Below are positions 6,201-44,341 of a stretch of 44,341 nt of DNA, piece after piece. The stretch spans positions 195,834-240,174 of the forward strand of contig JBNKBE010000009.1 of NCBI GenBank assembly GCA_050287085.1, written 5' to 3'. Numbering within the stretch: the first letter of the stretch is position 1; each line of letters starts with the position of its first letter. A program made the position numbers and the translations under genes. The notes below the pieces were generated by a model, which worked only from the letters and a program-made list of their open reading frames with translations, had not been told where the DNA came from and ran no database searches. This DNA comes from Polyangiaceae bacterium. GTDB lineage: Bacteria; Myxococcota_A; Polyangia; Polyangiales; Polyangiaceae.

Positions 6201-9200
6201 CGGTCATGATGGCGCCCGTGGTGCTACCCTCGAGCAGGGTTACCGTCGCGGGAGCAATCTTGAGCGAAGCGAGGCAAGCGTCAACAACGTTGATGCTGAC
6301 CACGTCTTGGTCCGCGCCGAGGGTTGCGCTCACGTCGATCGAATCGCTAGCGACTGCGTCGTTGGCGATGGTGACGAGACCGCTCTGGGTGACGGTTGCC
6401 TTGGCGCCCGTATTCAGACCCCAGGTGACCACCTCGGTACCCTCACAAGAGGTGCCACCGGCGTAGCTGATCTGAGCTCCGAGCTGGATATTGGCCCCAG
6501 CCGGGAGGGTGGGATCCGCCGTAACCACAGAGCCCTCGGCGTCGGTGATCTCGATTTGCGTTACGTCACGCACCACGACGTCGAGTTCGAGGGAGCCAGA
6601 AGTTCCGCTCGAAACAGGACCGAGGGCAGACGGTGCGGTCGCCGAAAGCGTGACCGTACCGGCACCCGTTGTGGTGAGTGTGCTACCCGCGAGGGTCGCG
6701 CCCGTGCCCGAAAGCGTCGGGGTGACGTCGGGCAGAATAGCCGCTGCGCCGTCCGAGAAGAGACCCACGACAACCAGAGGAACTTCGAGCCCCGCGGAGA
6801 ACGCCGTGGCGCTACCGGTGAGGTAGCTGACGGGGGTTCCGAAGGTGCCCTGAGACGCGCTGGTCGTGTAGTCCGCACATTGATCGAACGACGAGGCGAT
6901 ACCTACGTAGACCGATTCCAAAGTACGGCCGCTTGCAGACATGGCGAGGGTGCCGGTCTGTCCTTCGTACAACGCCGAGATGATCGACTCACCGGCGCTC
7001 GAACCGCTGACCACGCCGGTGCCGTTCACGGCAACGTGGTTATTGTTGCTGTCCCAGCTTGCGTTGCCGGCGACCGGCCACGGGGTGATCGAGTCGTCTG
7101 CGAAGCTGGCAACAGCGCTGAGCTGAATGCCCGTCTCGCCCACACCGATGGTGGTGCGGTTACCCGGAGCGGTCACGGTCACAGCCGTTACCGGTGTATC
7201 AACCGTGGTGACGCTGAACTCCGCGGGCTCAACCGCGGCGCAATAGCGATAGACGTTGGAACCCACGGTAACCGTCTGGTTCGGAACACCCGAAACGCGA
7301 ACCGCCACGGTGCCTTCGTTTTCGTCGCCGTTGGTGGTGATGAAACCACTGGCTGCAACGTCGAGGGCCGTGAAGGGATCCTCGGTACCCACGATCGGAT
7401 CACCCGCAGAGTCGAGAATCTGGTGGTTAACGTTGCTGGCGTCCGTCAGCACGACGGGGTCGAGCCCCTCCACGCTGAAGCTACCCGTAACGGTGGTATC
7501 CTGAACGAAGCTCGGAGAGCTTCCGGTCTGCGGAATGGGCATCCGCGCGCTGATCGCCGGAGCGGCGGTCAGAGCGTTGATACACGCCTCGCGGAGGACG
7601 ACTTCACCCGTGCGAGTGAAGGAGTTGGTGCCACTGACGTAACGTGCGGTCAGCGTGATGGCCAGACCCGGCGAAGAACCGATGTCCGGCCATGCGGTTA
7701 CCGGAACGCTCGGCGTAGCCGATGCCGTTACGTCACCCGTGCTGTTCACACTAGCAGAGCCCGGAATGCTCGAAGTCCAGCTCACGCCGGAGGAGAGATT
7801 CACGGTGCCGCAGCCGCCGTTGGTATCAACCAGTGCAGCCAATGCGCGCGACGAAGCGCCCAGGGGCAGCACTCTGTACGGTCCGTCCTGAACGAAGCTG
7901 GTCAGCACAACCGACAGATTGTCGAATACGCAGTCCTGAACGCTTACGGTCACCGAGTTGGCCGTGAAGTCCGCCGTGGCGTTGGCCGGCTTAACTGCCG
8001 TGATGACCGTGCCGCCCGCTACGAGACCCGTCAGGGTATCGAGGGTGTTGTCAATGGCAGCAACCCCTGGGGCGGTGCCCGTGAAGGAGATGATGTCTTG
8101 GCAATTCTCAACGACGATGCCGTCTTCGTAGGTGCAATCCGCAACCAGGTTGAGGGCTTCGCCTACCGGTAGAACCGGCGTATTGGACGTCTTGCTGAGA
8201 GCGTCGTCCAATACGTAAACAGCGACCGATTGGATCCGGTCGCTGGTCACAGCCATCTGCACGGGCGTGCTGGTGACTTGATCTGCGGCCGTGGTGTACT
8301 TGGCGGTGATGGTGGCGTAACGCACCTCGAGGCCGCCCTCACCCACGCTAGCCACCGTTATCTGGTTGGCCGAGGCAAGACCCTCGGTACCGGGCTGGTT
8401 GGAGATCGTGACCCAAAGGTTGGTCGCGATAGGCGGACAGGTCGAACAACTCGGCTGAACTACCGACCACTCCACGAGCTCGGTGACGTCGATGGACGAG
8501 CCGTCCTCGAACACACCGGTCGCCGTAAACTGGCGGGTCTGCCCCTTGGGAACGTCGACCTTGACGGGGGTAACCGTCAAGCTGGTGAGGGCAACGGCAG
8601 AAACCGTGACCGTCGCAGAACCCGTCTTGCCGCCCTGGGCGGCCGTGATGTCGACCGTGCCGGCGGCAACGCCGGTCACTACCGCAACGCCGTTTTGCTC
8701 AACTACAGTTGCAGTAGCCGCGCTCGCGCTGCTCCAGGTAGCGGTGCTCGTAACATCGAGAGTCGAGCCATCGGTGAGAGTTGCGATCGCAACGTAGTCG
8801 AGGGTGAAGTTCACCGGAACCGTCGACGTATTGCCTACGGGCTGAACGGTGATGGTGTCGATGACAGCCGGATTAACCGTGACCACCGAGGTGGCGCTGA
8901 CGCCGTTGCTCCACGTGGCCGTGATGGTCGCCGTGGTGGACGTTGCGTCCGGAGCTACCGAAACCAAGCCGTCCTGGCTTACGGTCACGTCGCTTGCGCT
9001 GCTGGTCCAGGTCAGGCCGGGATCAGCGGTGAGATCGGTACCGAACGTGCCGGCAGCTTCATCGCTGAAGGTGGCCAGCGCCGTCAACTGACGGGTGGTT
9101 CCTACGGGTACCGAAGGCGCCGCCGGGCTCAGAGCAAGCTCGGTCACAACCGCTGCGGTTACCGTAACCGGTACCTGCAACTGTACGCCGTCGAGCTGAA

Positions 9201-11202: not shown

Positions 11203-12180
11203 TCGGTATCCCCTATGTTTCTGATTCCGATTCGGCGGGGCGCACAAGTACGCCCACGCTATTCAAGCCGATGGGTTCTAGCTCATGGCCAGAATGGCTC
11301 GCAAGCAAAGGTGATGAGATTTCGGGCGGTTAAACATCGGCCGAACCGCCCAGTGCCCGTCGCGGCCAAAGCGCCGATTTTGCTAACTGAATGAAAGGTG
11401 GTTCCAATCCCCACATGTGCACCAAGGCGGTGGATTTCGTCAAAACTGGAAACCCTGACCGCAAGCACCCGACAACGTGACTTTTCGGGGTGCACCCCCC
11501 TTCGGATGCGCTAGCCTGTGCGGTTTCGCAGGGGCATGAAGGAGCGAGCGGCGCGCAAAAGCCGCGGGAAATTGGCGTATTTACAATAGGTTACAGAGTT
11601 TACCTCGTTCCATCAAAACCGGACAACAGGCCTGCAATGAGGTGTGCCCTTGGACGGAGTGGTCCTCTCGTTACAGCCGTTAACCTATATCTACCTACAC
11701 GACGCGCAGAAGACGTGCGCGTGCGGCCAGCCCCGCTGCACAAGCCTGGATAGTCAGAAATTCCCTGTCTCACCGCTCCAGGGATAGCTGGCCCAGCGGC
11801 TGTTCCACCGACGCTCACCCGCCGTGGACATCGCGATTTCGATGGCCGAATCTATCCCCTGACCGCGAGCTCGCTTCGCTCGCTGATGTCCCCGCACCAC
11901 GACGCTTCCTCCACGCGACAGAAAATGCACGGGCCCCAGCGCCCGGACTCCGGCAGGGCGATAACACGCCCCAGGGCTGACCGTCCAGCCCCAGACCCAC
12001 GTCGAAGCCCAGGCCACGTCCAAGCCCCGATCTAGGCCCAGACCACACTGTGCCTTGGTCAATCGCCGACGTCGTCATGAGGCAGCCGACAGCGCTTCCG
12101 CGCCCGCTCACCCAGTCACTTGGCGGTGCTCGGGAGATAGCTCACAGATGGCGAGCTATCTCCGCATCTTGGGCGCGCGC

Positions 12181-29907: not shown

Positions 29908-30164
29908 CTTGCGCCCCTATGAAAGCCTTCAGTCCTTCGTGGACCGCCGCAACGGTACAGACTTTGTTGTGGAAGGCGCCACGGGCGCAAGGCTTGAGAG
30001 CCGCCCGCCCCGCTCGCCCCGCGCGCATTGTGCGGCCAATTTGGGCCCCGGGGTCGGGCGCCATGAGACGGGACGCAAGCCGACAACGGGCCCACGGCGG
30101 CCCCGCTACGGACGTCTCGGGTCTTGCGCCTGCCGAGCGATTGTGGAATCAAGCAAACGCGCCA

Positions 30165-30854
30165 ATGGGGATCTCGCTGAAGAGCGCCTGGCTTGGATAT
30201 AGCGGGCAGTCGGTACTGCGGGGCTGCACCCTCGATGTCGGCCGCGGCGATAGCGTGGTCGTCACAGGAGCCAACGGCGCAGGCAAGTCGACCCTGCTTT
30301 TTGCGTGTGCCGGCCTCGTCGACCTCGACAGCGGAACGGCCAAGCTCGGGGGACAACCGGCAGCGCCCGCACGCAGCGGAGAGTTGTTTCGAAGCGGTGT
30401 TCGTTGTGGATTCGTCTTCCAGGAGGGCGGGCTCATGGCGAATATGAGCGCCGTCGCAAACGTGGGGTTGGCCCTACGCTACCACGCTGACGTTCTTGGC
30501 CTAACGCTCGAAGAGGTCGAGCGACGCTCGAAGCTTGCCCTTGAACGAGTGCGCATCCGCGCCAGCGACTACTACGCACTCCCGGCGCACCTATCCTTTG
30601 GGGTACGCAAGCGCCTCGCCCTGGCCCGGGCCATCGCGCTCGAACCCAACTATTTCTTCTTCGACGACCCGGACGTCGGTCTCGATCCCGAAACCGCCGC
30701 ACTGGTCCACGAGATTCTCTGTTCCTACCGAGACGACCCCGACGTAACCATGGTTGTAGCTACCAACCGTGATCTGCTGATCGATCGCCTCAAGGTACGC
30801 GGTCTCGAGCTGGCTCGGGGTGTACTGGCCAAGCACAAGAGCAGTCAGTACTAG
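30165..30854 (+). CDS. ABC ATP-binding protein (MlaF-like), orphan, with atypical Walker B/H-loop
   Basis: Walker A GANGAGKS, Q-loop GFVFQ, signature LSFGVRKR, FFFDDPDVGLDP; ATG 30165 preferred over 29919. Confidence 0.85.
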   Translation: MGISLKSAWLGYSGQSVLRGCTLDVGRGDSVVVTGANGAGKSTLLFACAGLVDLDSGTAKLGGQPAAPARSGELFRSGVRCGFVFQEGGLMANMSAVANVGLALRYHADVLGLTLEEVERRSKLALERVRIRASDYYALPAHLSFGVRKRLALARAIALEPNYFFFDDPDVGLDPETAALVHEILCSYRDDPDVTMVVATNRDLLIDRLKVRGLELARGVLAKHKSSQY

Positions 30855-31114: not shown

Positions 31115-34100
31115 ATGTCGCTCCTACGGTATGCATCGCGGTTTCTGAGGACTAGCGTCTTCCTGGGAGCCGAGTGGCTCGCGCTGGGCTGCAGTTCGAC
31201 GAGCAAGGAGCCGCCCGCGATAGAACTCCGTTCGCGCGGAGCGGCCCTGCAAGAAAGTAGTCTAGAAGTCTGGGCTCGAGTTGAAGCGCCTGACGATGCG
31301 GCCTGGGTCAAGCCACGAATCTATGTAAAGAATAGGGGAACAACGCCTCTCTCGAGCTTCCTTGTCGATTTCTATTTCACGGAACCGCCAACGGCATCAC
31401 CCGTTGTGGAGGACTGGCACACACCAGCAAGCACTCCACAGATTGAAGTGCTCGGCGACAACCAGTACCGACTGGTCTACGACTACGCAAACGTCACGCT
31501 CGCACCCGGAGCCGTCGTCCCAGACTCAGCCGGCTCTGTCGTAGGCCTTCATCATTCAGACTACAGCGACTGGTTCAAGGCCGACGACTATTCCTACCAG
31601 GGACTTACCAGCTCCTTTTCACTTGCAGAAAATATCGTGGTGCGGGGACAAGATGGCACCGTCTTATATGGAGCCCCCCCCCCAATGCCTCAGGGGTCGA
31701 CGCCTGACGGCAACGGGGCGTCGGGCAGTGGTGGGACTCCGGGCGCGGCAGAGCCAAGCATAGGGTTCTACGTCCAATGGCCATCCGAGCATAGTCTCGA
31801 TCAATTGGTCTTCGGAAGCAACGAGATGCTCCAGATACGCGACGGCGTACAGCTCGAGTCCTCCGTCGGCAGCTCGAGACCGATCGCGGCAAACCTCGGA
31901 GCGGGCCTTCTCGAGGTCGGTCAGCAGGCACAGACCGGGACGCTCTTCGGCGCTGGAAATGTGACGACGCTGCGGGGAGCCCAAGTGCACGGCGATATCA
32001 TCGCTACGGGCTCCTACACTGCACAGACGGGGACTGCAGTGAGCGGCACTTACCCGCCCCCGAATCGCGTTTTCGAAACCAGTCGCACCCACTTCAGGGT
32101 GACATTCCCCGCGGAGAAAGCAGCGGTGAGCATGGATAGGCTGGTCGCCCTGGTACCGGGCGCATACAGCGCGCTCAGTATCACCAACGGTCAAGAAGTT
32201 ACCCTGACGGGACCGGGTCGCTATTACTTTGACACCCTTGGAATCGAGCCAGAAGGTACGTTGCGGCTGCGGAATTCGGCAGGCGGCATTGAGATATTCG
32301 TTCGGAGCGGGGATAGCTTCGTACGTGGCGACTGGAAGCTGGATGAGCCCCGTCAAGCCAACATACTCCTCGCACACGCCGGAGAGGGAAATGTTAGCGT
32401 GGCACGCCCCTTTAGGGGAACCTTGGTCGCCCCCTGGGCTAACGTGGAACTAGCTACTCTCAGCGCTGGGGAGTGGCACGAGGGTTCGTTCTTTGCGCGT
32501 ACCATAGTTCAGCACCCGCATACGGCTGTCCGTTTGCGGCCTTACGTGGCCGACTGCAGCTGGTTCGCAAGTACCTGTTCCGAAACCTTGGGCTGCTCGT
32601 TGCCCGACGCGGACTCGGATAGCTTGTCTGATTGCCAAGAGCAGGGTGATGGAAGCCCTTGGACGGATCCCCAAGTCCCAAACGGCATCCGCATGCGATG
32701 GGACGACGAGTGCAGCTTTTCGACGAACGAGATATGTCCGGCCATCGACACCCCGAGCGAGGTGAATGCGTGCCTCGGACCCCAGCCCCAGGAGGAAGTT
32801 GACGCCACTGCCGGGTTTTCGTGGCACGACGTAACAACGACCAGCATCTGTGATGTGGGCTACGGCTTCATCCCTCCGTTCTCGAGTTGCAGTGATACCT
32901 GGACCTTGCACGCACAGGGTTTTCTTTGGGTGCCCCAAGACGGCTACGAATGCTTTAGTGTCGCCGGTGATGACCAAACGTCGTGTGGGGCGCTATTCCT
33001 CGCTGAGCAACCCGAAGCGTTGCTCAGCGGGGCTGGCTCCACCTGCTATTGGTTGACACAAGGAGCGCATGAGATTCGCTGGTTCCGCGCTGCCGCTCCA
33101 GGGAGCACTGGAGACTTCGGGGTAGATCACTGCTCCGGCGGCGCTGAACCGTGCGAGCCCACGAGCACCATTCGCATAGACGTGCTGCGTCCCGAACGCT
33201 GCGGCGCAGGTGAATGCACTTCTTATTGTCCTTGTGGCGAGGGCGGCGGCGCCTGCGCCCGCGATGCCGACTGTACGGAAGGCCTCGTCTGCACCGCGGG
33301 GTTAGCAACTCAAAACGGTCTCCCCGAAGGCTCGTCAACGTGCCTTTTGCCCCTATGCACGACCGATCCGACCGATCCTCGGTGTCATAAGCGGCCCCCA
33401 AGTTGCGAAACTAATTCCGACTGTACACGTGGAAAGTGTCTGGACGCCGGATACAAATATGGCTTCGCCGCCGGGGGGAAGCTGTGCTTTGACGACGACT
33501 TCTGTAGCAGCTCCGCTGGAGCCGACTATTGCGGCGCCGCAGACGCTCTCTGCGGCCTGTGCGAATGTGCCCCGGACTGTTCTGGAAAGGCCTGCGGCGA
33601 CGACCCATCTGACGGCTGCGGGGGCTACTGTCCCGAGATATGTGGCCCAGGTGAACAAGGCTGTACGCACAGCGCATCCTGCTCCGGCGACGAGCTCTGC
33701 CTGCAAGGACAATGTCTCCCCCCCATCTGCGGCACGACTGATTGCAATGACGCGGAGTGCGGAAGCAGTTGCGATACCTGTACGCCGCTGTGCCTCGGAC
33801 GAGTTTGTGGGATCGACCTCCGCTGCGGGGTATCGTGTGGAACGTGTGGCGAGGGGAGTTCGTGCTTCAATGGGATCTGCAAGCTCAGTCCATCGGCTCC
33901 TCGCACCGACGTGCCAGACTCTCCAACCGCTGGCAGAAAGGTTACACCCGCCATCGGGAGTATTCCCGGTACTCTCACTGTCTCGCCAACCGGTGAGGCA
34001 CGCTACCACGTTCCCATAGCCCTACCGCCCGCGCGAAACGGGCACTCTCCTGATCTCGCCTTGGTCTACGCCGGGAACCGTGCTCCCGGTATCGCCGGAG

Positions 34101-37100
34101 TCGGCTGGACCGTGAGCGGATTGTCCGCCATCGCGCGCTGCGCAAAAACGACTGCTATTGACGGCTGGCCCGAGCCCGTCCGGGGCGACGACGCAACGGA
34201 CGCCTATTGTCTCGACGGCCAGCGCCTCGTGCTCACTAGCGGAAGCGCTGGCTCCGACGGGGCCACGTATAGGACACGAACCGAAGCCTTCGTCGACGTA
34301 ACCTACCACCGCTTGGAAGGTGCCAATGGCTTCCAGAATACCTATTGGACCATGCGAACCAAGTCAGGTGAATTCCGTGAGTACGGGAAGCGTTATCGGA
34401 CCTACATGGGTCTTGCCGGGGCCACCGCAGTACCCCGCGTCTGGCCCGTCGATCGGGTGGTCGCACGCGACGGAGCTGCAAGAACCTACGAGTATCAATG
34501 TGATGGCTTGACGACGTTGGGGGGTGGCTATTGTGTCGTAGAGCTCCTACCACGTGCCATCCACTACGGCGGTTTCGCTCCGTATACTGAACAAGGTCTT
34601 GCGACTGAAGCAACGCACAGTTCGACACATACCATCGAGTTCAGCTACGAGCCGCGACAGAATCGGCAGATGTTCGTGGTCGGACCAGAAGCCTATTCAT
34701 CACTTGAGCGGCGTCTGCAACATGTGCGTGTTCGCCACGGAGGCTCAACGATGCTCGGCTACTGGTTGAGCTACTCTGAATCCACGCGCGGGTATGGAGA
34801 CCTACTCGGATCCGTTGAACAGTGTGCAATCCTCGACGGCGAGATCTACGAGGAGACGTGCATGCCTCCGCTTCTATTCGAATACGAAGATGATGCGGGC
34901 CCCACCTTTGAGGAGCCAATTAGTGCGCTCAACCCTTTTTGGGGAGACGACTTTGGCGGGGGCTTCTCAGTCCTTGATGTCAAGGTGCGCGAAGAACAGA
35001 AGAACATCAAACCCACAATCATGCTGGACCTAAATGGTGACAGCACCCCAGACTTCGTGCACCCCGGTCCTGCTGGTGCTTGGTGGGTGACGCTGGGGAA
35101 TAATTACGACGAGCATCCCCCTGTCAGGGCCGAGCGCGTAGAAGGCAAAATGAAGTGTATAGGGCCTGCGTCTGTCGCCGCCTTTGCCGACTTTGCCAGC
35201 GAAGGCAACCAGGCGCTTGTCGACACCTGTACCATCCACCCAAGCGGCGAGGTGAACTACTACGAACTCAACCCCCATCGAACCACGGGACCGCTACTCG
35301 AACGCCGGCTCTACCTTCCTGGCATTTTGGACAAGCACGTAGAGCAGGTGCTCCCAATCGATATCAACTTGGACGGCGATACTGAACTCATTGCGTGCGA
35401 TGTCAACGGTCCTGTGATGATCTGGACACGCAAGCAGCCCGGTTCAGCGTACCAAGGTTACCCGATCCCGCCTGTTCCCCGTCACGGCCGATGGCACAGC
35501 GCCAACGCGTGCAATTGGAACAACAATCAACTCGAACGCCCTTCCCCTCTGTTCATGGATACGGACGGGGACGGCACGCCCGATCTCCAAATCCAGGCTC
35601 CCCAAGGTTCGCAGGCCTTGCACTTTCGCTACCAAGACGATGAGCTCGTCGCGGAGTGGACACACGTAGGGCTGGACGTCGAGAGCGATGCCCCAACGTC
35701 GCTATTGGCGGGGCCCTTCCGTGCTATGGATGTCAACGGCGACGGCCTTCAGGATATTCTGGAACATCGAGCCTTTTTGCTTGGCCCCCAAAAAGACAGC
35801 GATGGCCTCGAAATTCGTGTAAAAAGCACTGATGCTGACCATCTCGGCATTGATGTCTACGCCTGGATGAATCGAGCTGGCTCCTTCTCGGATCTGTACT
35901 CGAATCTTCCGGCTGTCGAACTCGGCTACGACCACATTGAACCCACAGCCCCCCAAGGCTCTCCTTGGTGGCGCGGGGTCACAGCAAAGTTCTTCGAGAT
36001 CTCGCGAATCGCAGATCTGAACTTGAGCGGGCGCGGCGGCATCATCAGCTTCGTCCAAGAACAAGCTCACCGTGGCTGGCACTATGTGACCGCTGACAGC
36101 GTATTTGACCCAAGGCAACGGAAGCTGCTTTGGCGCGCCGAACGAATTCCCAGTCTTCCTTCCGAGGAGACTTGGACGACCAGCGCCATGGTCCCAATGT
36201 TTGCGGACTTCAACGGGGATGGCGTAACAGATGCACTGCTGCAACGAGGCTACACAAGCCAGCGGGATTTCAACGTCCGACTCTACCTCGGTCGTAACCC
36301 CCTGAGACGATTGCTCAAGAAAGTCACCGACGGTCTGGGCAATCAGACACTGATCACCCATTCGGTCTACAAGGACTATCTGGTCAATACCGAATGTGGG
36401 CCCCTACCGTATACGCGCTGCGCTGCGAGAGGTGGCAGCGTTGTGACCAGGCTCCTCACCAAGAACGCAAGCCAAGTGGACGACGCTACGGCCGAAGAAG
36501 GACATACCTTCTTTTCCTACTACGATCGGCGCGCCGCACGAGGAGGAGGCGGAAGCCTCGGATTCGGAAAGCGAATACAAAGCGACTACCAGCCAGGTCT
36601 TTCGCTGCCCATACGAACGGTAACCGAGACCTACGACAATGGATCGACAGGGCCCGCACCCGAATTTCCCTTTGCCGGGCGGCTGCTCCGACGCGTCACG
36701 GAAACAGCAGATGAGACCAATGGACTATCCGATCTCAACGCGCCAACCAGCGCGACGTCCAGGCCGATCACGCGCTTCAGAACAATCGAGTCTTTTACCT
36801 ATCAAGAGATGACCTCGGATGCGGGGCGCCCTTTTGTTGTGCTGACGGAACAAGAAGAGAGGCGCTATCAAGTCATTGGGGGAGAGCAACATGAGCTTTC
36901 TCGCACTATAGAGCGGTTTCACGATGCGACGGGAGCCAACGGCTTTGATTCGTACGGAAATCTCCACTACCGCAACAAGCAAACAACAGCGCCCTCCACA
37001 GACGGAACAACGGCAAGAGTCATCGTGACCGTTGAAGAGCACACTCAATACTATCCCAACGGAAAGCGCTCATCTGATGGCCCTACTGTTCCGACTCGCT

Positions 37101-40100
37101 GGGATCCTGGGCTCGTACAACAGCATTCTGTTACTAGCGGCGGAATAACGCGCAAGTACGATTTCGAATACACCGAGAGCTATGGCCTGCGGAGGAGCTC
37201 AAGCCGATTGGTCAACGGCGAGCTTCACCGCATCTCTTCCGAGTACGACAACGTAAACAACCTCCGACGAGTCATCGAAGAGGGTTCCGGCACGGTTCGT
37301 CAGTCCACCATTGAATACGACGAGGCTCAACTCCGACCGGTTCGTGCAACCGGCCCTACCGGAATGGTGGCCGCAGTTGAACTCGATACTGCGACAGGGC
37401 AACTGCGCAGCGAAGTAGATGCCAATGGGGTCGGCGCGGTTCATGTATACGACCTATTTGGGCGCAGAATACAGACGATATCAGCCACAGGAATCGAGAC
37501 GGTCACACTGACGGCGTCGACCGAGCCGACCGGCTTGTATCAGGTTACCAATACCATCACCGATGGACTCAGCACCCAGTCGACGACCACACACTTCGAC
37601 TCCCGCGGCCACGACGTACTCACACGAAGCCTAGGACTCGACGGTGTATGGCTGACCCAGGCCAAGGTCTATGATGCCCTCGGAAGACTGCGACTCAAGG
37701 AGCTACCACACCCTGAAGGCGACGAAGCCGCCACCGGCGTCACACAATACCACTATACCCCTCTCGGTAGCCTCGAACGAGTATCCGCTCCCGGAGACAA
37801 GGGGAAGGCTCCAGTAATAGAGAGGTACGAGTACGCAACTCGCTATACGAGCGATGTATCAGACGTACCAGTACTGTCCCCGGACAGTGTATTGACCTAC
37901 GTCGCGAGGAAGATTGACGCGGACGGAAAAGTCAACACAACCTATAGCGGGCCCCTTCAAGAGCCTTTGGTCCGGCGCCAAGGCGAAGGCGAAGAAGCCA
38001 TCAACACGCGCATAGCTTATGGTGCCTTCGGCGACATGACGCGCTACCAGACTAGCAACAATACCTTAACGGTGGCGCATGACACCTGGGGTCGCGCTAC
38101 GTCGGTATCTGATAGTGATGTAGGTACCATCAGGTACAGCTATGACGCCCTAGATCGGCTGCTGACGATGGTCGAGGCAGAGGGCCACCACTCGCGCTAC
38201 GAGTACGATGCGTTGGATCGAGTCATCAACGCGTCTCATTGGGATGCGGATGGTGCGCTCGAGGCCAGCGAAGAATTCGTATTCGACTGCGACCCAACAC
38301 AGCGAGACGCCAACGGGAGATGCGTCGCGGACGCCCAAAACAGCCTTGGGAGACTGATTCAGGCAACGCGTTCACAGGTAGGTTCACCCTCCACCACCGA
38401 ACGCGTATTCTACGAAGCACCGCCATCCGACGGCGACTACTTGAAGAATCGCGCCCTAGTTGAACGTATACAGCTGCAGACAGCCGATCGCACGTTGGAA
38501 AGCAGCTACGAATACTATAACGGCAGCAACCGAGTTGCTGTGCAACACTACCCGCCCACGGCAAGTGGGCAGTTGATTGGCGTCCAGTATTGCTACGATG
38601 ACTTGGGAACGAAGACCCACGCGTTTCCGCTGGAAGCGATCACACCATGCGACGCGCCAGAATCCGCAAGCGAAGAGCCCTACTGGAAACGAACGGGTAC
38701 CCAGAAGGGCATCGCTGCGAACAGCTATCAGCTCGGCAACGGAGTGAATGTCACTCTAGATCTTGATCCCGTCACCTTCCGCCTCAGTGGGCATCAGGTA
38801 GAAGGCCCGGCGGGCGGCAGCGGGCCCACCCTCACCTTCCAGTACGATTATGAACCAGGCGGTCGACTTAAGTCGTCTACGAGAAGTTCGGGCGGATCTG
38901 AAACGACAAAGGCGTTCAACTACCGAAAGAGCGGAGTGCTCGATTCGATCGTCACAAACAACCAGCCAACCCACGTCCCGGGATACGACGAAGCTTGGCG
39001 CCTTGCCGGAACGGAAAAACTCGGAACCTTCCACTACGACGACGGCGACGACGACCCCGGGAACAACCGTCTCAAGTCGGTAACTCCGCCGGGAGCCGCC
39101 GGACCAACGACCTTCTTCGAATACGACGGCCGCGGCAACCAGCGGCGACGCACAGGTGAGCACATCCCAGGCGGCGAGCAGGTAATCACATACAACACGT
39201 TCAATCTGCCCAGCACCATCAACTACTTCGAAAGCGGCGAAGCACGCCGAGTAGCCTTCGACTATAGCGCCAGCGGGGAGCGCGTTCACACTGAACGCTC
39301 TGACCGTGAAATCTGGCACTTTGGAGGCATCTACGAGCATGAGGAGCGCACAGGCGATCCGGATCTAAGCGAAGAGGACCGCTATTGGATCTTCGCAGAC
39401 GGGAAGCGCATTGCTCAGATCAACCGCAGCCGACGGGCCGAAGAGCCCTGGTCCGAAAGCATCTGGTACTACCACGTTGATCGCCTGGGCAGCGTCGTCG
39501 CCTTGAGCGACAACACCGGAAACACCACTCACGAGTTTGAGTACGACACCTACGGCACCCCTCTCCAAGAGCTGCCTATTCCTTACGGCTACACCGGCCA
39601 CCGCCATGAGCAATACCTGGGCCTCATCGACATGGGTGCTCGCTTCTACGACCCTGTCTTCGCGACCTTCCTGAGCCCTGACCCTGAGAGCCCTCTCTCC
39701 GGCGGTTCGCCCAGAATGAACCGATACGGGTATGTCGGATACGACCCCATCAATTTCGTAGATCCAAACGGGCGATTTGTTTTCCTCGCCCCGGCACTCG
39801 CTGCCTTCGGCATCTCCCTGATCGTTAACACTACCGTCGGCCTTATCGACGGCGATTGGGACAGCAACGACACTGCTCGCCTGCTCATGGGCGGAATCGC
39901 TGCTTTCGCTGGTGGTGCTGTGTCCGGATTGCTACTTCAGTTCAGCTACGCTTCCGCCGTTGAAGCCGCCGTCGCGGCTTCCGCCATCGGCGGCGCCACC
40001 TATGGCCTCGGGGCTGGAGTCCGGAGCGGCGCTAGCTGGGACCAGGTCGTGGGTTCCGCCCTACAGGGCGGCGTCATTGGAGCCCTATCGAGCGCCTTTG

Positions 40101-40954
40101 GCGCTAGCGGCAACGCTGGCATAGTCGCACTCGATGTCTTTGAAAGCCGCTACGCACTCGCTGCCTCGGAGCTCCTCCTCACCTCGGGCGCAAGCGCCGG
40201 TGTCTCTGCCCTCTCCGGAGGCGACGTCGACTGGGGCTCCCTCTCCGTTCAACTGGCCGTCTCTACCGTCGGCGCCTTCCACTCCGCATACGAGCTAACC
40301 CAGGCAGATATCGACAGAAACCACCAGACTGCCCAGGGCGCCGGTAGAGCCGCAAAAGCCGCATCCGACCGGGCCGACGCCGCTGCACGGGCCCGGCATA
40401 TCAACGCTTTTCTCGCCAGCGCCTCCACCGCAGCTGGCTCCAGCGCGAGCCTCCTCGATCGCTATCCCAACGCAATCGCTTGCTTGTACTGCGAAGCCAT
40501 CGGCATGAACATCTACGACCCCCAGCAGTTCCCGAAGAACTATGCTAGAACTCAGGGACTCGGTGCCGCGGCTAGTCTCTTCTTTCTTACCGGCGCCGCT
40601 CTCTTGCCCGTTGAGGTCGCCGGATACGCCGCTTGGTTCGCCGCAAGGGGGGCGCCGAAGCTTCTAGAAGCAGGGAAACTGGCGAAGCACCACTTGTTTC
40701 CCCAGCAATTCAGGAAGTTCTTCTCCAGTCGCGGCATCAATATTGATCAGTTCACCGTAACGCTGGGGCACAACACCTCGCACCTGAAAGGCGTCCATGG
40801 GAAAGGACTGGGCAACATGCCTGGAGGTTGGAACAAGCGTTGGGCTGACTTCATCGAAGCAAACCCCAACGCGACAGCGAAGGATATCTACCAGTTTGGA
40901 GGGAAGCTTATGGACGAGTTTGGACTCAGCCATATCCCGATACAACCGTACTAG
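31115..40954 (+). CDS. Giant Rhs/YD-repeat polymorphic toxin: possible lipoprotein signal, CBM3-like, PA14, Cys-rich, SpvB, FG-GAP, YD shell, Rhs core, HH-motif (DUF2380-like) C-terminal tip
   Basis: 3,279-aa ORF; SpvB start (G.L.VSPTGEARY.VPI.LPP...P.LAL.Y); D.NGDG..D repeats; YD..GR repeats; YYH.D.LGS, YTGH, ARFYDP, DPINFVDPNG core; tip KHHLFPQ.F..FF...GI.ID...WN..W..F. Confidence 0.92.
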   Translation: MSLLRYASRFLRTSVFLGAEWLALGCSSTSKEPPAIELRSRGAALQESSLEVWARVEAPDDAAWVKPRIYVKNRGTTPLSSFLVDFYFTEPPTASPVVEDWHTPASTPQIEVLGDNQYRLVYDYANVTLAPGAVVPDSAGSVVGLHHSDYSDWFKADDYSYQGLTSSFSLAENIVVRGQDGTVLYGAPPPMPQGSTPDGNGASGSGGTPGAAEPSIGFYVQWPSEHSLDQLVFGSNEMLQIRDGVQLESSVGSSRPIAANLGAGLLEVGQQAQTGTLFGAGNVTTLRGAQVHGDIIATGSYTAQTGTAVSGTYPPPNRVFETSRTHFRVTFPAEKAAVSMDRLVALVPGAYSALSITNGQEVTLTGPGRYYFDTLGIEPEGTLRLRNSAGGIEIFVRSGDSFVRGDWKLDEPRQANILLAHAGEGNVSVARPFRGTLVAPWANVELATLSAGEWHEGSFFARTIVQHPHTAVRLRPYVADCSWFASTCSETLGCSLPDADSDSLSDCQEQGDGSPWTDPQVPNGIRMRWDDECSFSTNEICPAIDTPSEVNACLGPQPQEEVDATAGFSWHDVTTTSICDVGYGFIPPFSSCSDTWTLHAQGFLWVPQDGYECFSVAGDDQTSCGALFLAEQPEALLSGAGSTCYWLTQGAHEIRWFRAAAPGSTGDFGVDHCSGGAEPCEPTSTIRIDVLRPERCGAGECTSYCPCGEGGGACARDADCTEGLVCTAGLATQNGLPEGSSTCLLPLCTTDPTDPRCHKRPPSCETNSDCTRGKCLDAGYKYGFAAGGKLCFDDDFCSSSAGADYCGAADALCGLCECAPDCSGKACGDDPSDGCGGYCPEICGPGEQGCTHSASCSGDELCLQGQCLPPICGTTDCNDAECGSSCDTCTPLCLGRVCGIDLRCGVSCGTCGEGSSCFNGICKLSPSAPRTDVPDSPTAGRKVTPAIGSIPGTLTVSPTGEARYHVPIALPPARNGHSPDLALVYAGNRAPGIAGVGWTVSGLSAIARCAKTTAIDGWPEPVRGDDATDAYCLDGQRLVLTSGSAGSDGATYRTRTEAFVDVTYHRLEGANGFQNTYWTMRTKSGEFREYGKRYRTYMGLAGATAVPRVWPVDRVVARDGAARTYEYQCDGLTTLGGGYCVVELLPRAIHYGGFAPYTEQGLATEATHSSTHTIEFSYEPRQNRQMFVVGPEAYSSLERRLQHVRVRHGGSTMLGYWLSYSESTRGYGDLLGSVEQCAILDGEIYEETCMPPLLFEYEDDAGPTFEEPISALNPFWGDDFGGGFSVLDVKVREEQKNIKPTIMLDLNGDSTPDFVHPGPAGAWWVTLGNNYDEHPPVRAERVEGKMKCIGPASVAAFADFASEGNQALVDTCTIHPSGEVNYYELNPHRTTGPLLERRLYLPGILDKHVEQVLPIDINLDGDTELIACDVNGPVMIWTRKQPGSAYQGYPIPPVPRHGRWHSANACNWNNNQLERPSPLFMDTDGDGTPDLQIQAPQGSQALHFRYQDDELVAEWTHVGLDVESDAPTSLLAGPFRAMDVNGDGLQDILEHRAFLLGPQKDSDGLEIRVKSTDADHLGIDVYAWMNRAGSFSDLYSNLPAVELGYDHIEPTAPQGSPWWRGVTAKFFEISRIADLNLSGRGGIISFVQEQAHRGWHYVTADSVFDPRQRKLLWRAERIPSLPSEETWTTSAMVPMFADFNGDGVTDALLQRGYTSQRDFNVRLYLGRNPLRRLLKKVTDGLGNQTLITHSVYKDYLVNTECGPLPYTRCAARGGSVVTRLLTKNASQVDDATAEEGHTFFSYYDRRAARGGGGSLGFGKRIQSDYQPGLSLPIRTVTETYDNGSTGPAPEFPFAGRLLRRVTETADETNGLSDLNAPTSATSRPITRFRTIESFTYQEMTSDAGRPFVVLTEQEERRYQVIGGEQHELSRTIERFHDATGANGFDSYGNLHYRNKQTTAPSTDGTTARVIVTVEEHTQYYPNGKRSSDGPTVPTRWDPGLVQQHSVTSGGITRKYDFEYTESYGLRRSSSRLVNGELHRISSEYDNVNNLRRVIEEGSGTVRQSTIEYDEAQLRPVRATGPTGMVAAVELDTATGQLRSEVDANGVGAVHVYDLFGRRIQTISATGIETVTLTASTEPTGLYQVTNTITDGLSTQSTTTHFDSRGHDVLTRSLGLDGVWLTQAKVYDALGRLRLKELPHPEGDEAATGVTQYHYTPLGSLERVSAPGDKGKAPVIERYEYATRYTSDVSDVPVLSPDSVLTYVARKIDADGKVNTTYSGPLQEPLVRRQGEGEEAINTRIAYGAFGDMTRYQTSNNTLTVAHDTWGRATSVSDSDVGTIRYSYDALDRLLTMVEAEGHHSRYEYDALDRVINASHWDADGALEASEEFVFDCDPTQRDANGRCVADAQNSLGRLIQATRSQVGSPSTTERVFYEAPPSDGDYLKNRALVERIQLQTADRTLESSYEYYNGSNRVAVQHYPPTASGQLIGVQYCYDDLGTKTHAFPLEAITPCDAPESASEEPYWKRTGTQKGIAANSYQLGNGVNVTLDLDPVTFRLSGHQVEGPAGGSGPTLTFQYDYEPGGRLKSSTRSSGGSETTKAFNYRKSGVLDSIVTNNQPTHVPGYDEAWRLAGTEKLGTFHYDDGDDDPGNNRLKSVTPPGAAGPTTFFEYDGRGNQRRRTGEHIPGGEQVITYNTFNLPSTINYFESGEARRVAFDYSASGERVHTERSDREIWHFGGIYEHEERTGDPDLSEEDRYWIFADGKRIAQINRSRRAEEPWSESIWYYHVDRLGSVVALSDNTGNTTHEFEYDTYGTPLQELPIPYGYTGHRHEQYLGLIDMGARFYDPVFATFLSPDPESPLSGGSPRMNRYGYVGYDPINFVDPNGRFVFLAPALAAFGISLIVNTTVGLIDGDWDSNDTARLLMGGIAAFAGGAVSGLLLQFSYASAVEAAVAASAIGGATYGLGAGVRSGASWDQVVGSALQGGVIGALSSAFGASGNAGIVALDVFESRYALAASELLLTSGASAGVSALSGGDVDWGSLSVQLAVSTVGAFHSAYELTQADIDRNHQTAQGAGRAAKAASDRADAAARARHINAFLASASTAAGSSASLLDRYPNAIACLYCEAIGMNIYDPQQFPKNYARTQGLGAAASLFFLTGAALLPVEVAGYAAWFAARGAPKLLEAGKLAKHHLFPQQFRKFFSSRGINIDQFTVTLGHNTSHLKGVHGKGLGNMPGGWNKRWADFIEANPNATAKDIYQFGGKLMDEFGLSHIPIQPY

Positions 40955-40970
40955 TGGCAGGAGATAGAAG

Positions 40971-41270
40971 ATGGTGAAGATACCGCCATTCAGGCTCAGG
41001 CGTGAACCTCTAGATGATGAAGCCCGGCAACTTCCGCCGTTCAAATGGGCCGCCGACGAGGTCGGAAATCGACATCGGCTCGGTGGGCTGCCGGAGCGCG
41101 ACGTAAGTCCCGAAGACTGGCCAAAGTGTCCAGACTGCAACGAGCCCATGACCTTCTATGGTCAGCTTGATTCATTGAACGATGCGATTTGCATTGCCGA
41201 TGCCGGTCTCATCTACGTCTACGTTTGCTTGGACTGCAACGAGGTCAGGGCGGAGATTGATTCGGCCTAG
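40971..41270 (+). CDS. Candidate immunity protein, small double-CxxC protein (YwqG/DUF1963-like)
   Basis: 99 aa, 16 bp after the toxin stop, AGGAG RBS; RLGG.P...WP.CPDC..PM.F..QLD...D.G.IYV.VC..C. Confidence 0.7.
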   Translation: MVKIPPFRLRREPLDDEARQLPPFKWAADEVGNRHRLGGLPERDVSPEDWPKCPDCNEPMTFYGQLDSLNDAICIADAGLIYVYVCLDCNEVRAEIDSA

Positions 41271-41300
41271 GCATGTAGTGCCCGAATGGGCGGCCTCACA

Positions 41301-41331
41301 ACTCGCGCGGCGGGCGTGGCGCCGCGCGAGT
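41301..41331. repeat. 12-bp perfect GC-rich hairpin after the immunity gene
   Basis: ACTCGCGCGGCG-ggcgtgg-CGCCGCGCGAGT. Confidence 0.75.
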
Positions 41332-41386
41332 GATCCGTTTGAGCGCCGTGCCCGTGCAATGTGCCCGCCGCTCCGCGGAGCCCCCG

Positions 41387-41501
41387 ACCTAATGGCTGAG
41401 TTAAGCTGCAAGGCGCGTAGCTGCGATTCGGCGTGACGGACAAGGCGAGTGATGGTCGTAGATGACCGCACTCGCCTTGTCAGCTTCAGCGACCATTAGG
41501 A
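41387..41501. other. attC-like integron recombination-site element with AAT/ATT cores
   Basis: ACCTAAT-GGCTG-AGTTAAGC...GCTTCAG-CGACC-ATTAGGA has R-5bp-L...L-5bp-R spacing; arms pair (CCTAATGG/CCATTAGG; AAGCTG-CAAGGCG/CGCCTTG-T-CAGCTT) with unpaired extra bases. Confidence 0.55.
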
Positions 41502-41631
41502 CGGGGCCAGCGACGCGGAGGGGTGCAGCCGTACAGAGCGTGCCGTCGTCCCTTGTTGTTGATCAAGCAAACAGATCCGTCCATAGCCGCTACGAGCTCT
41601 TAGCGGCTGATTGCGTTTTAGTTGCTGTGAG

Positions 41632-42015
41632 TCACTGTGCTTGCTGCGTAAGTCGGTGCTTTTCCAGGTAAGTATCGATGATGCGGAGCACTTCGCGTCG
41701 GTCTTTCAGCGGCAGCTCCTCGAGCTGTTGCAGACGACGGTAGAGGTGCTGATTGGTCTTCGAGCGTACTTCGGCTTTGCTGGGAGGCTTGTTGCCAACG
41801 AGAGCGTCGACGGATGTGCTGAGCGCGTCAGCGAACGCCGTGAGGACGTGTCCGGGCGGTAGTGCTTCGCGTCCCTCGTAGTAGGCGATCATCCGTTGGG
41901 ACACGCCTGAGATTTCGGCGAGCTGGCGTTGCGAGAAGCCGGCCCTTTGCCGAACGTCAGCGAGGCGCTCGCCAAAGGCGGGGTGTTGAGCGACGGGTGG
42001 GCTTTTGCGGGGCAT
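41632..42015 (-). CDS. XRE-family helix-turn-helix transcriptional regulator
   Basis: FGERL..VR...GFSQ.QLAE.SGVSQ.MIAYYE...P....L...ADAL..SVD.LVG; ATG 42015 preferred. Confidence 0.9.
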   Translation of the reverse strand: MPRKSPPVAQHPAFGERLADVRQRAGFSQRQLAEISGVSQRMIAYYEGREALPPGHVLTAFADALSTSVDALVGNKPPSKAEVRSKTNQHLYRRLQQLEELPLKDRREVLRIIDTYLEKHRLTQQAQ

Positions 42016-42093
42016 GGACAATCCCAGGGGCTTGGTGAGTGAGCCCAAGGTAACCCCGTGATCTGAGGGGGAGTCCGAATTGCCTTGCACACC

Positions 42094-42110
42094 GATACAT
42101 TAAATGTATC
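42094..42110. promoter_or_regulatory. Perfect palindrome, candidate operator between the divergent XRE and primase genes
   Basis: GATACATT-A-AATGTATC; AT-rich in a GC-rich context; TTGACA hexamers nearby on both strands (minus 42118-42123, plus 42145-42150). Confidence 0.65.
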
Positions 42111-42175
42111 TCTCCGTGTGTCAATGAAATGGCTCAGATACTGCTTGACAGCTGATTTGCAGAGTGGAGGCGATG

Positions 42176-44341
42176 ATGGCGCGGATACCGGAGGCAGAAG
42201 TAGAGAGAATCAAAGAGGAAGTGTCTCTCGTCCGTGTGGTCGAAGGGGCGGGCATCGAGCTGAAGGCGCACGGTAAGGACCTGGTGGGTCGTTGCCCGTT
42301 TCACGAGGACAAGACGCCGTCCTTGGTCATCACCCCCGACAAGAACCTGTGGCACTGCCTGGGGGCGTGTCAGACGGGGGGGAGCGTGGTGGACTGGGTG
42401 ATGAAGGCGGAGGCGGTGAGCTTCCGGCACGCGGTGGAGCTGCTTCGGGAGCGTCACTTTCCTTCTTTAGTCGCCGAGCCGAAGCGGGGGCGCCCGGCGA
42501 CGGACGGGCGCAGTTACCCGAAGACGTCATCAGCGAAGAAGCTGCCGGAGTTTGCGGAGGCGGCGGAGAGCGACGCAGTGCTGCTGGGGCGGGTGATTTC
42601 GTACTACCACGAGCAGTTGAAGCAGAGCCCGGAGGCGCAGGAGTATCTGAGGAGCCGCGGGCTCGGAAGCGCGGAGCTGGTGGAGCGCTTTCAGCTGGGC
42701 TTCGCGAACCGCACCCTTGCCTACCGGCTGCCGCCGAAGCAGGTGAAGGCGGGCGAAGAGCTGCGGGGCCGTTTGCAGGCGCTCGGTGTTTTGCGCAAGA
42801 GCGGCCACGAGCACCTGAACGGCAGCATCATCTTCCCCATCACGGACGCGCGCGGCGAGGTGGTGGAAGTGTATGGCCGGAAGATAACGCAGGGGCTGCG
42901 CAAGGGGACGCCGCTGCATTTGTACTTGCCGGGTCCGCACCGCGGCGTCTGGAATCTCTCCGCTCTCGAGGCCAGCAAAGAGCTCATCCTGTGCGAGTCC
43001 ATCATCGACGCGGCGACGTTTTGGTGCGCAGGCTTCCGGAACGTGACGTGCAGCTACGGCGTGGGCGGCTTCACGGATGATCACGTAGCGGCCTTCGAGG
43101 CGCACGGCACGGAGCGCGTGATGATCGCGTACGACCGGGACGAGGCCGGTGACAAGGCAGCGGAGGCGCTAGGCAAGCGCCTGAACGCGCTCGGCATCGA
43201 GACGGCGCGGGTGTTGTTTCCGAAAGGCATGGACGCGAACGAGTACGCGCAGAAGGTGGGGCCAGCGGAGAAGAGCTTGCGTCTCGCCCTCCAGAACGCA
43301 GTGTGGACCGGCAAGGGGCGAACCGTGTCCCCGGCTGCAACCCCTGCCGACGCCGCCGTCTCCTCACCGAGCCCCACCCCACCAGCAACGTCAGTGGGCT
43401 ACGAGACAGCTGGTGACGTCATCTCACAGACACCTGAAGCGTCGAAAGAGGAGAGTTTTTCTCATTTAGCTGCTGAAGGAGACGTGTCCGATGAAGTGGG
43501 CGCTAGCCATTGCGAGGGCGAGGAAAAACTCTCCTCTTTAGCCGCTGAACAAGGCCCGGAGACGTTGGAGGAGAGCAAGGCGGAGACTGGCCGCGTTAGC
43601 CGCGAGAGCGCAAAGCCGGACGAGCTCATCCTGACGTTTGGCGATCGGCGCTGGCGCATCCGAGGCCTGAGCAAGAACACTGCGCTCTCTGCGCTGCGCG
43701 TGAACATCCTCGTATCGCGCGGAGAGTCGTTCCACGTCGACAGCCTGGAGCTGTATAGCGCGCGGCAGCGGACGGCTTTCATCGGGCAGGCGCGCGAGGA
43801 GCTGGGGGTCGAGGAGCGAGTGATCAAGGGGGACCTCGGGCGAGTACTGTTGAAGCTGGAGGAGCTCCAGGAGCGGCAGCTGAAGGAGGACAAGAGCCCA
43901 GCGAGCAAGACGGTGACGCTGAGCGATGCGGAGCAGCGGGAGGCGCTGGCCTTGCTGAAGTCGCCGCGACTTCTCGACCGCATCTTGGAGGACTTCGAGC
44001 GCAGCGGTGTGATTGGAGAGCGGACCAACAAGCTCGTCGGTTATCTCGCTGCGACGAGCCGGAAGCTGGAGCGTCCGCTTGCTGTTGTGGTCCAGAGCAC
44101 GAGTGCGGCGGGCAAGTCTTCGCTGATGGAGGCAGTGCTGTCGTTTATCCCGGAGGAGGAGCTTTGCCAGTACTCGGCGATGACGGAGCGGAGCTTGTTT
44201 TACATGGGCGGGCAGGACCTCAAGCACAAGGTGCTGGCGATAGCTGAAGAGGAAGGCGCTCGCGAAGCGTCGTACGCCTTGAAGCTGCTTCAGAGCGAAG
44301 GCCGTGTGAAGATAGCGTCAACGGGCAAGGACGCGCGGACG
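42176..44341 (+). CDS. CHC2 zinc-finger / TOPRIM DNA primase fused to a P-loop NTPase (3'-truncated by the window end)
   Basis: Absent from the ORF track because it has no stop in the window. GGAGG RBS; translation MARIPEAEVERIK...CPFHEDKTPS...WHCLGAC, LCESIIDA, IAYDRDEAG, GMDANE, QSTSAAGKS, VLAIAEEEG. Confidence 0.92.
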   Translation, partial: MARIPEAEVERIKEEVSLVRVVEGAGIELKAHGKDLVGRCPFHEDKTPSLVITPDKNLWHCLGACQTGGSVVDWVMKAEAVSFRHAVELLRERHFPSLVAEPKRGRPATDGRSYPKTSSAKKLPEFAEAAESDAVLLGRVISYYHEQLKQSPEAQEYLRSRGLGSAELVERFQLGFANRTLAYRLPPKQVKAGEELRGRLQALGVLRKSGHEHLNGSIIFPITDARGEVVEVYGRKITQGLRKGTPLHLYLPGPHRGVWNLSALEASKELILCESIIDAATFWCAGFRNVTCSYGVGGFTDDHVAAFEAHGTERVMIAYDRDEAGDKAAEALGKRLNALGIETARVLFPKGMDANEYAQKVGPAEKSLRLALQNAVWTGKGRTVSPAATPADAAVSSPSPTPPATSVGYETAGDVISQTPEASKEESFSHLAAEGDVSDEVGASHCEGEEKLSSLAAEQGPETLEESKAETGRVSRESAKPDELILTFGDRRWRIRGLSKNTALSALRVNILVSRGESFHVDSLELYSARQRTAFIGQAREELGVEERVIKGDLGRVLLKLEELQERQLKEDKSPASKTVTLSDAEQREALALLKSPRLLDRILEDFERSGVIGERTNKLVGYLAATSRKLERPLAVVVQSTSAAGKSSLMEAVLSFIPEEELCQYSAMTERSLFYMGGQDLKHKVLAIAEEEGAREASYALKLLQSEGRVKIASTGKDART

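Follow-up and report, generated by a model that had tools for sequence, protein, structure and literature searches.

A predicted integrative element that exchanges the tips of Rhs toxin genes: an exchange junction in a Polyangiaceae genome and empty and filled alleles in Escherichia coli

The 44,341-nucleotide (nt) stretch analysed here, called the window throughout, comes from a Polyangiaceae bacterium (contig JBNKBE010000009.1 of assembly GCA_050287085.1, positions 195,834–240,174; contig C9 below) and closes with an Rhs toxin gene, its probable immunity gene, an XRE repressor gene and a primase–NTPase gene (Table 1). We consider it probable that these genes belong to an integrative element of 6–9 kb whose cargo is a toxin tip together with the tip's immunity gene and whose target is the 3' part of polymorphic toxin genes. 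In order, the unit would comprise tip, immunity gene, XRE gene (reverse strand), primase/helicase gene, XerC-like recombinase gene, toxin–antitoxin (TA) pair and right end. A junction can be placed at a single base of the Rhs gene, the sequence behind that base is duplicated in the window's genome, the same gene order recurs in other bacteria, and alleles of E. coli with and without the unit display the displacement of a resident tip.

Since contig C9, and the window with it, stops within the primase gene, the extension past position 44341 called for by an earlier, sequence-only reading of this DNA could not be made on that contig. Further parts of the unit are supplied by contig C66 of the same genome (1,607 bp), which encodes the C-terminal 125 amino acids (aa) of a tyrosine recombinase, a small antitoxin/toxin-like pair and a 74-codon leader. 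This leader has a hydrophobic N-terminus and continues without a change of frame, the join falling between two codons, into the toxin tip that the window carries: C66 closes with 77 nt identical to window positions 40640–40716, and nothing upstream of 40640 matches. The junction lies 290 codons past the DPNG motif of the Rhs core and 10 codons before the DUF2380 match of the tip. A 13-bp core like that at 40640–40652 also opens the tips of other cassettes in the genome, with shared stretches there of 13–21 bp. No contig overlaps the C9 end or the far end of C66 by at least 40 nt. The antitoxin-like gene of C66 has a weak Pfam match (E 0.0085) and the toxin-like gene has none in Pfam; we presume a ParE/RelE type for the pair from its position in annotated relatives and from general likeness.

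Read depth changes at the same base. In X1, the one run found to contain this DNA, which is probably the source of the assembly and was used as contigs from a large mixed data set, one unitig covering the Rhs gene to position 40669 has a depth of 14.8, another starting at 40640 (tip and immunity gene) a depth of 31.2, and the XRE gene lies at 30.2, these being depths per contig that give no direct copy number. The primase pieces reach 38–51 (compared with 14.8) and show two variant sites and a second upstream sequence. The independent X1 unitig graph breaks at 40640–40669, at the same base as the assembly, and the excess depth amounts to one chromosome. We conclude that there are two copies of the last 104 Rhs codons, the immunity gene and the XRE gene, one belonging to the carrier and the other following the recombinase and right end, and, if the X1 depth is read with care, about three of the primase. 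Such repeats account for the fragmented assembly. At the window locus, a free circle is less likely than a tandem copy in the chromosome. As a separate observation, the X1 reads hold a near-identical primase copy with other sequence upstream of window position 42144 that is absent from the assembly.

Natural alleles of E. coli show what the presence of such a unit means for its target. The element is found in 56 of 5,426 complete E. coli genomes, at a median of four places. At the Rhs locus between ansP and yddH, strains 21F61 and JNEC-KY177 lack it and their carrier ends in a tip designated B. Strain JNE120442 has the same flanks, within which the carrier ends in tip A and is followed by an immunity gene, an orphan, SymE, XRE, primase and xerC genes, the right end, and then tip B with its immunity gene. 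From the junction onwards, starting with tip B, 12,935 bp are 100% identical to 21F61. The unit measures 7,928 bp, and both of its boundaries fall on one base within the TDPIG codons, where 15 bp are shared with one mismatch. A second pair, JNE151685 (empty) compared with SCU-113 and S10 (filled), switches at the same base, with 14–15 bp shared and an exact run of 1,354 bp, and the junction base is constant among the E. coli ends examined. Presence of the unit in E. coli thus goes with a new in-frame carrier tip, the former tip and its immunity gene being intact behind the right end. A search with two further orphan tips gave no empty allele in the one matched region viewed for each. SymE genes flank the ansP–yddH orphan tips (L143–L151) even in strains that lack the element, where they may mark earlier copies.

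The arrangement is widespread. A primase search of GTDB genomes yielded, from the best 80 of 491 related stretches, 75 loci in many phyla; the following counts cover those loci with enough flanking sequence and include several loci per genome. An XRE gene precedes the primase gene in 64 of 65 loci and one tyrosine recombinase gene follows it in 60 of 62. Rhs core ends flank the module upstream in 25 of 32 loci, always on the same strand, and downstream in 15 of 27; in all, 74 Rhs matches are on the element's strand and two are opposite. As a base rate, four of 991 six-kb windows of this genome have an Rhs core end. Where the tip behind the recombinase could be compared with the upstream tip, it differed in 15 of 21 units, was the same in four, the class into which the window falls, and could not be judged in two. 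The recombinase belongs to the PRK01287/NF002331 family (428–433 bits, cut-off 371). Scored as XerC or XerD, it falls below threshold (TIGR02224, 238–243 bits against 335; TIGR02225, 228–237 against 330) and is encoded by a single gene; as GmtY it scores 24–29 bits against a cut-off of 340.

Among plasmid records, the module stands behind CdiA/TpsA-type toxins in Enterobacter, as three tandem units, and in Pseudomonas aeruginosa. Two plasmid records deposited as circles, of 11.3 kb (Lonsdalea) and 8.8 kb (Shigella), contain tips along with the genes of the element; neither has a typed replicon. No transfer or relaxase genes are annotated in the circular records viewed, which are typed as non-mobilizable; no family search was made for them. 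Exact terminal repeats occur on five of the 75 contigs (6.3–8.4 kb). L026 is a tandem dimer that begins in the Rhs core, exact tandem units begin at the junction in L026 and L125, and a topology like that of the C66 join is present in L026, L050 and L125 and in complete genomes. In L011 and L012 and in two Leptospira plasmids, L141 and L142, the module stands with no Rhs match in its vicinity or with no recombinase gene next to it, a Leptospira region and a circle being without any Rhs match. At such places the module may have other targets or be a plain replicon.

What was expected from the sequence-only reading, namely an element carrying or replacing tip–immunity cassettes, is borne out in its main lines. 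All of its parts lie in the order it gives, from Rhs toxin and CxxC gene through two hairpins, XRE gene and palindrome to the CHC2–TOPRIM–NTPase gene; a recombinase gene does follow the primase gene, on C66 as well as in the related loci; Rhs genes are enriched beside the primase; and the coverage is raised, doubling from 40640 in X1. Two expectations held in part. The foreseen XerC/XerD-like genes proved to be one PRK01287 gene and not a XerC/XerD pair, and replacement of the tip was predicted to follow DPNG: tips do differ between E. coli alleles with and without the element, and the exchange in the window falls at codon 3176.

At the right end, the sequence following the recombinase gene contains two similar boxes about 100 nt apart. 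In a leave-one-out scan of 400 nt, with 13 junctions set from DNA repeats alone and any of the top four matches counted, a box ended 109–114 nt before the junction in 10 of 13 ends and 10–13 nt before it in seven of 13; because the box seed came from L045, two of the 13 ends are not independent. Host-like sequence begins 11–14 nt past the second box in 11 of 15 ends (7–16 nt in all 15) and is in frame in 12 of 15, a partly circular result since the second box was placed by hand from a junction-trained model. The first box ends 114 nt before the junction in the window's element and 113 nt before it in the first E. coli pair. The leave-one-out scan did place the first box in this genome; a bipartite model at a fixed threshold missed the genome's own ends and gave 12 scattered matches in it. 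The place of the junction within the toxin gene varies by lineage: at one extreme it lies about 250 codons inside the core, at the other where the toxin domain starts. This variation led us to reject the idea of one conserved att site for the Rhs core. Hydrophobic leaders are likewise encoded by one end from Enterobacter and by a second myxobacterial one, and the frame is closed in several other ends.

From these data we propose that the recombinase exchanges strands, by way of a circle, within the 13–15-bp core common to junction and toxin gene. Insertion would supply the carrier with another in-frame tip and shift the resident tip, along with its immunity gene, to a place behind the right end, so that repeated events would build orphan arrays in which every old immunity gene is retained. 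The primase-helicase would copy or maintain the circle or build tandem arrays; self-replication is suggested by the protein fold and the circular records. The XRE protein would keep the element quiet and the TA pair would stabilise it. Extending the proposal beyond this locus, we lean, with less assurance, towards a cross-phylum class of replicating integrative elements whose target is the 3' end of Rhs and CdiA/TpsA genes, each lineage having its own site. Such elements would swap tips at a 13–15-bp core and archive old tips and immunity genes, and the class would correspond to the episomal carrier predicted in 2009. In some lineages, including this one, the right end supplies an in-frame, signal-peptide-like leader, by which a displaced tip could leave the cell as a small toxin in its own right.

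Tips could instead be renewed by homologous recombination of the host, acting on core remnants (Jackson 2009, Koskiniemi 2014), the primase–recombinase module being a selfish passenger that once landed in toxin loci and travels within the recombining unit. Long core remnants at many loci, module-free orphan arrays in this very genome (C50, C29, C55 and C57) and same-genus relatives that vary their tips with no module detected are what it would lead one to expect, and a Salmonella study demonstrates duplication followed by homologous recombination (PMC3967940). We nevertheless judge it unlikely as the principal route, because carrier and right end have no sequence in common upstream of 40640 and the cassettes have just 13–21 bp in common after it, because both E. 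coli pairs switch exactly at the right-end junction, and because the distance from junction to box is fixed though the target site differs by lineage. A stretch of 15 bp is too short for efficient RecA exchange. Given that similar sequence continues past the 15 bp and that many long remnants exist, host recombination probably also acts at these loci.

Alternatively, the element might capture a tip and immunity gene already in place and amplify them, its right end being joined to a site upstream, in which case it raised immunity dosage here and did not deliver the tip. The window would suit this, its carrier tip being the one found behind the recombinase (as in four of 21 units, and in L125) and its depth being almost exactly twofold. 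A tandem dimer is also expected, however, from a second insertion or from replication of the same unit, and the differing tips in most units compared and the displacement seen in the E. coli pairs make capture quite improbable.

An integron-like route, in which the attC-like hairpins are recombination sites and a host integron integrase moves the cassettes, is largely refuted for the exchange of tips and retains a very slight probability. Hairpin 2 does have attC-type geometry, with paired outer and inner boxes and a variable terminal structure; it folds with a z-score of -6.9 (none of 200 shuffles as good), and its pairing is kept in eight near-full copies with compensatory change in seven of 39 pairs. 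The attC-like site of the sequence-only reading is to that extent real. A true integron integrase gene is present on C15 (G000:C15:169027-169968; 440 bits against a cut-off of 265, in a frame of 588–593 codons), and L050 bears an AAC/GTT version of the hairpin at the equivalent place. The core in this genome, however, is AAT/ATT in place of AAC/GTT, no pair of the form RYYYAAC...GTTRRRY occurs on either strand within 41271–41640, and the hairpin stands at no mapped junction, these being at the right end, about 750 nt from hairpin 2 in the window. With a covariance model it was detected in four of 81 related loci at E < 0.01, all of them myxobacteria-like, and in this genome, where 150 of 904 candidates were scored, solely behind the immunity genes that belong to tip cassettes. 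The element's recombinase, tested as an integron integrase on TIGR02249, reaches 116–121 bits in full-length relatives and 65 for the C66 fragment (cut-off 265), and a scan for attC-like hairpins around the C15 integrase gene found none. Hairpin 2 lies inside the moved unit and is not the site of tip exchange; it may descend from integron cassettes or offer a second point of entry.

That the C66 join is an assembly artefact or stems from a second strain in the sample, for which a short-read draft with collapsed repeats, foreign-looking small contigs and a large mixed run might speak, is hardly credible given that both assembly graphs are interrupted at one base, that the excess depth equals one chromosome, and that L026, L050, L125 and complete genomes share the topology. 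Several small contigs, C70, C71, C72 and C82 among them, resemble pieces of plant retrotransposons and are probably contamination of the assembly.

Several observations weigh against the integrative element proposed here. Many remnants keep 90–250 core codons, enough for RecA, and in E. coli the core remains similar between tips beyond the 15-bp stretch, leaving room for homology-aided exchange. An empty and filled pair gives no direction and would fit precise excision as well as insertion, and the primase gene of the filled strain JNE120442 is frameshifted. About 1.5 kb joining the primase to C66 is absent from the assembly, the X1 depths carry the dependence and per-contig scale given above, and the second-box count its circularity. 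The locus counts are not independent, several coming from one genome, and the element has no Rhs match upstream in seven of 32 loci or downstream in 12 of 27, lacks an adjacent recombinase in two of 62, and has no Rhs match in a Leptospira region and circle. Collapsed tandem arrays may account for the terminal repeats and small circular records; the proteins of the 8.8-kb circle are those of a tandem unit in another strain. Finally, three same-genus drafts (93–96% complete) contain no primase or recombinase of the element's type, and one of them, G014, has a related Rhs carrier with another tip though no machinery was detected.

Table 1. Features at the right-hand side of the window (window coordinates)
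Feature	Position	Strand	Basis or remark
Rhs/YD-repeat toxin carrier, open reading frame (ORF) of 3279 aa	31115–40954	+	ORF and family profile searches
End of Rhs-associated core	39542–39772	+	Closes with DPNG at 39761–39772 (codons 2883–2886)
Exchange junction, AARG	40640–40652	+	40640 is the first base of codon 3176
Toxin tip, 104 aa, DUF2380 (match aa 3186–3272)	40640–40954	+	Pfam/NCBIfam match; twice chromosomal depth
Probable immunity gene, 99 aa, two CxxC motifs	40971–41270	+	Position; travels with tip
Hairpin 1, G+C-rich, perfect 12-bp arms	41301–41331		Repeated behind other immunity genes of the genome
Hairpin 2, attC-like, 115 nt	41387–41501		Non-canonical AAT/ATT core
XRE repressor gene (RstR-like)	41632–42090	-	Likely start 42015 by comparison with relatives
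17-bp palindrome, 8-bp arms	42094–42110		Between divergent XRE and primase genes; probable operator
DnaG-type primase (CHC2, TOPRIM) fused to MCM-like AAA+ NTPase	42164–44341	+	Runs off contig end
Two copies of pyrimidine tract-TTTAGC(C/T)GC motif	43465–43545 (43465, 43537)	+	Enriched across the element in relatives

In the carrier protein, an N-terminal region of about 940 aa is followed by SpvB (aa 957–1130), FG-GAP and TcdB-midN domains, the RHS repeat/core, a pre-toxin region and the tip. The Rhs-associated core scores 61.2 bits with TIGR03696 (cut-off 32.5), and the gene has the features of Rhs/YD-repeat polymorphic toxins: a core ending in DPxG, a variable C-terminal toxin and a small gene downstream, with other tips on related carriers. 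Its N-terminal region (31115–33930) has no Pfam match, shows a possible lipobox and Cys-rich repeats, and is weakly similar to proteins on C37 and C1. The DUF2380 tip is related to the SitA6 toxin domain, which is described as an AHH nuclease in PMC8546572. Identity with the SitA6 lipoprotein toxin was rejected, as TIGR02269 gives 58.1 bits (cut-off 85.75) and aligns only the C-terminal half of the model. The downstream 99-aa protein has no match in Pfam or NCBIfam and has DUF1963-like neighbours in the atlas, which is a lead only; as judged from its position and its travelling with the tip, it is the probable immunity protein. From family and position, the tip would be toxic and the 99-aa protein would neutralise it. 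Elsewhere in the window, the minus strand of 3214–11247 encodes a 2677-aa protein with Ig-like (Big_2) repeats and a weak match to a hyaluronate-lyase N-terminal domain.

Folding of hairpin 1 is modestly above chance (z -2.6; six of 200 shuffles equally good), and a short palindrome at 41584–41609 is within chance (z -1.3). Rfam gave no match in 40900–42250 at E up to 1, and a sigma-70 promoter scan found nothing; one terminator-like site equals the shuffle expectation. For the palindrome at 42094–42110, a probable operator, the shuffle figure shows word uniqueness alone and is not a palindrome test; palindromes with arms of at least 6 bp occur in 28 of 65 related XRE–primase spacers, a count made without a shuffled control.

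The primase ORF begins at 42164, with its MARIP motif at 42176 and the Walker A motif at 44096–44119; homologues are about 1000–1100 aa long. The NTPase half of a full-length relative (L052), modelled from a 55-sequence alignment with a mean pLDDT of 79, is best matched by MCM helicases (E 3.6e-10, TM-score about 0.4) and also matches PF27228 clusters in the atlas. A sequence search of the PDB with the primase protein returned DnaG primases alone and nothing for the NTPase half, and against 50,697 phage records there was no match at E 1e-60. The pyrimidine tract followed by TTAGC(C/T/A)GC, a motif chosen after looking at the loci, occurs across L001–L075 at 1.0–1.3 per kb in the primase gene, after the XRE gene and after the recombinase gene, as compared with 0.24 elsewhere in the loci; it is a possible primase or origin signal.

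The C66 leader also precedes other tips in this genome, on C56 (twice, one frameshifted), C73, C11 and C21, with the junction at a constant position; these include Ntox24 with Imm53 and a Tse2-like ADP-ribosyltransferase with an ankyrin protein. The leader is present in 20 database proteins (two of this genome and 18 from elsewhere), nearly all with different C-terminal domains, and in one same-genus genome. A hidden Markov model of five own-genome copies gave no match in the other loci searched, relatives being found by protein search alone. Cassettes on C50, C29, C55, C57, C59, C60 and further contigs start within the Rhs core end and have no machinery alongside. M15 peptidase tips (G000:C50:3-4810, C29:3-905, C15:3900-4450) join a divergent right end just before the toxin domain, and a recombinase relic adjoins one such cassette on C15. 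A different small antitoxin/toxin-like pair stands before each right end (C21:1-3790, C56, C75, C66), three of them consecutively on C21; lying between conserved repeats, the pair appears to be a second variable slot of the element.

Concerning the flanks, the window's ABC ATPase gene (29919–30854) faces away from the neighbouring cyclo-ligase gene, unlike in same-genus relatives. In all three same-genus genomes it adjoins a permease gene, which we take to be MlaE-like; here the two are split by the Rhs island, and the permease gene (G000:C11:3426-5485) sits directly behind the cassette at the head of C11. By this synteny C11 is the probable right flank, and the array probably ends on it.

How Rhs and contact-dependent inhibition systems renew their tips without losing old immunity has been unsettled since 2009–2011, and the usual answer is homologous recombination that happens by chance and passes through a circle not yet observed. 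A defined element with mapped ends and natural empty and filled alleles in E. coli makes the question testable in a model organism, and its gain or loss at one exact base could explain the renewal of bacterial toxin arsenals. It would also give a role to the PRK01287 recombinases annotated as xerC beside many toxin loci, and points to a bacterial element built on a DnaG primase–MCM-like helicase fusion, whose recombinase seems to have a lineage-specific target core.

Integrons are cassette arrays moved by IntI at attC sites. The element resembles them in its cassette arrays and attC-like hairpin and differs in that its recombinase is not IntI, its junction is off the hairpin and it has its own replication gene. 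Islands at tRNA sites and phage satellites with primase-helicases combine a tyrosine recombinase, a repressor and a short junction core and restore the 3' end of the target gene. The element has the same parts; the 3' end that it restores is a different functional toxin domain. It works like an integrative island that restores its target gene, yet fails the tests for integron, XerCD and Gamma-Mobile-Trio (GmtY alone tested). According to the accessible text, Gamma-Mobile-Trio islands (bioRxiv 10.1101/2023.03.28.534373) likewise have a tyrosine recombinase, a circular form, replicative transfer and type VI secretion effector cargo; they use inverted-repeat sites, carry whole effectors and have different core proteins, whereas the element described here replaces the tip of its target gene. 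In the open-access literature, subscription papers and supplements apart, we found no description of the element: the text of PMC8138268 contains neither 'primase' nor 'Rhs', and the accessible parts of PMC8987985 and PMC3032704 have no bearing on it.

The closest precedents come from work on toxin arrays, taken here from the accessible sections of each paper. The polyimmunity loci of Zhang et al. 2012 (PMC3482391) have, as here, a Xer-family recombinase beside immunity arrays, suggested to aid their accumulation; unlike here, those sections mention no primase and define neither tip exchange nor ends. Orphan rhs-CT and cdiA-CT arrays (Poole 2011, PMC3150448; Koskiniemi 2014, PMC3967940; Ruhe 2016, PMC4927057) likewise place tandem tip–immunity modules behind a full-length rhs or cdiA gene; Ruhe 2016 notes integrase and transposase genes among the orphans and proposes integration of new modules, and the Salmonella case of Koskiniemi 2014 involves 522 bp of homology after a chance duplication. 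In contrast to the present unit, the sections seen of these papers describe no defined element, end or replication gene. The nearest model is the rhs displacement of Jackson et al. 2009 (PMC2935791), in which a tip likewise displaces the resident one downstream by way of a circle, leaving variable remnants, and an episomal pool of tips is predicted, though with its machinery unidentified at that date; compared with that model, the recombinase, primase-helicase, repressor and TA pair are found here inside the unit, and the junction is fixed to the element's end.

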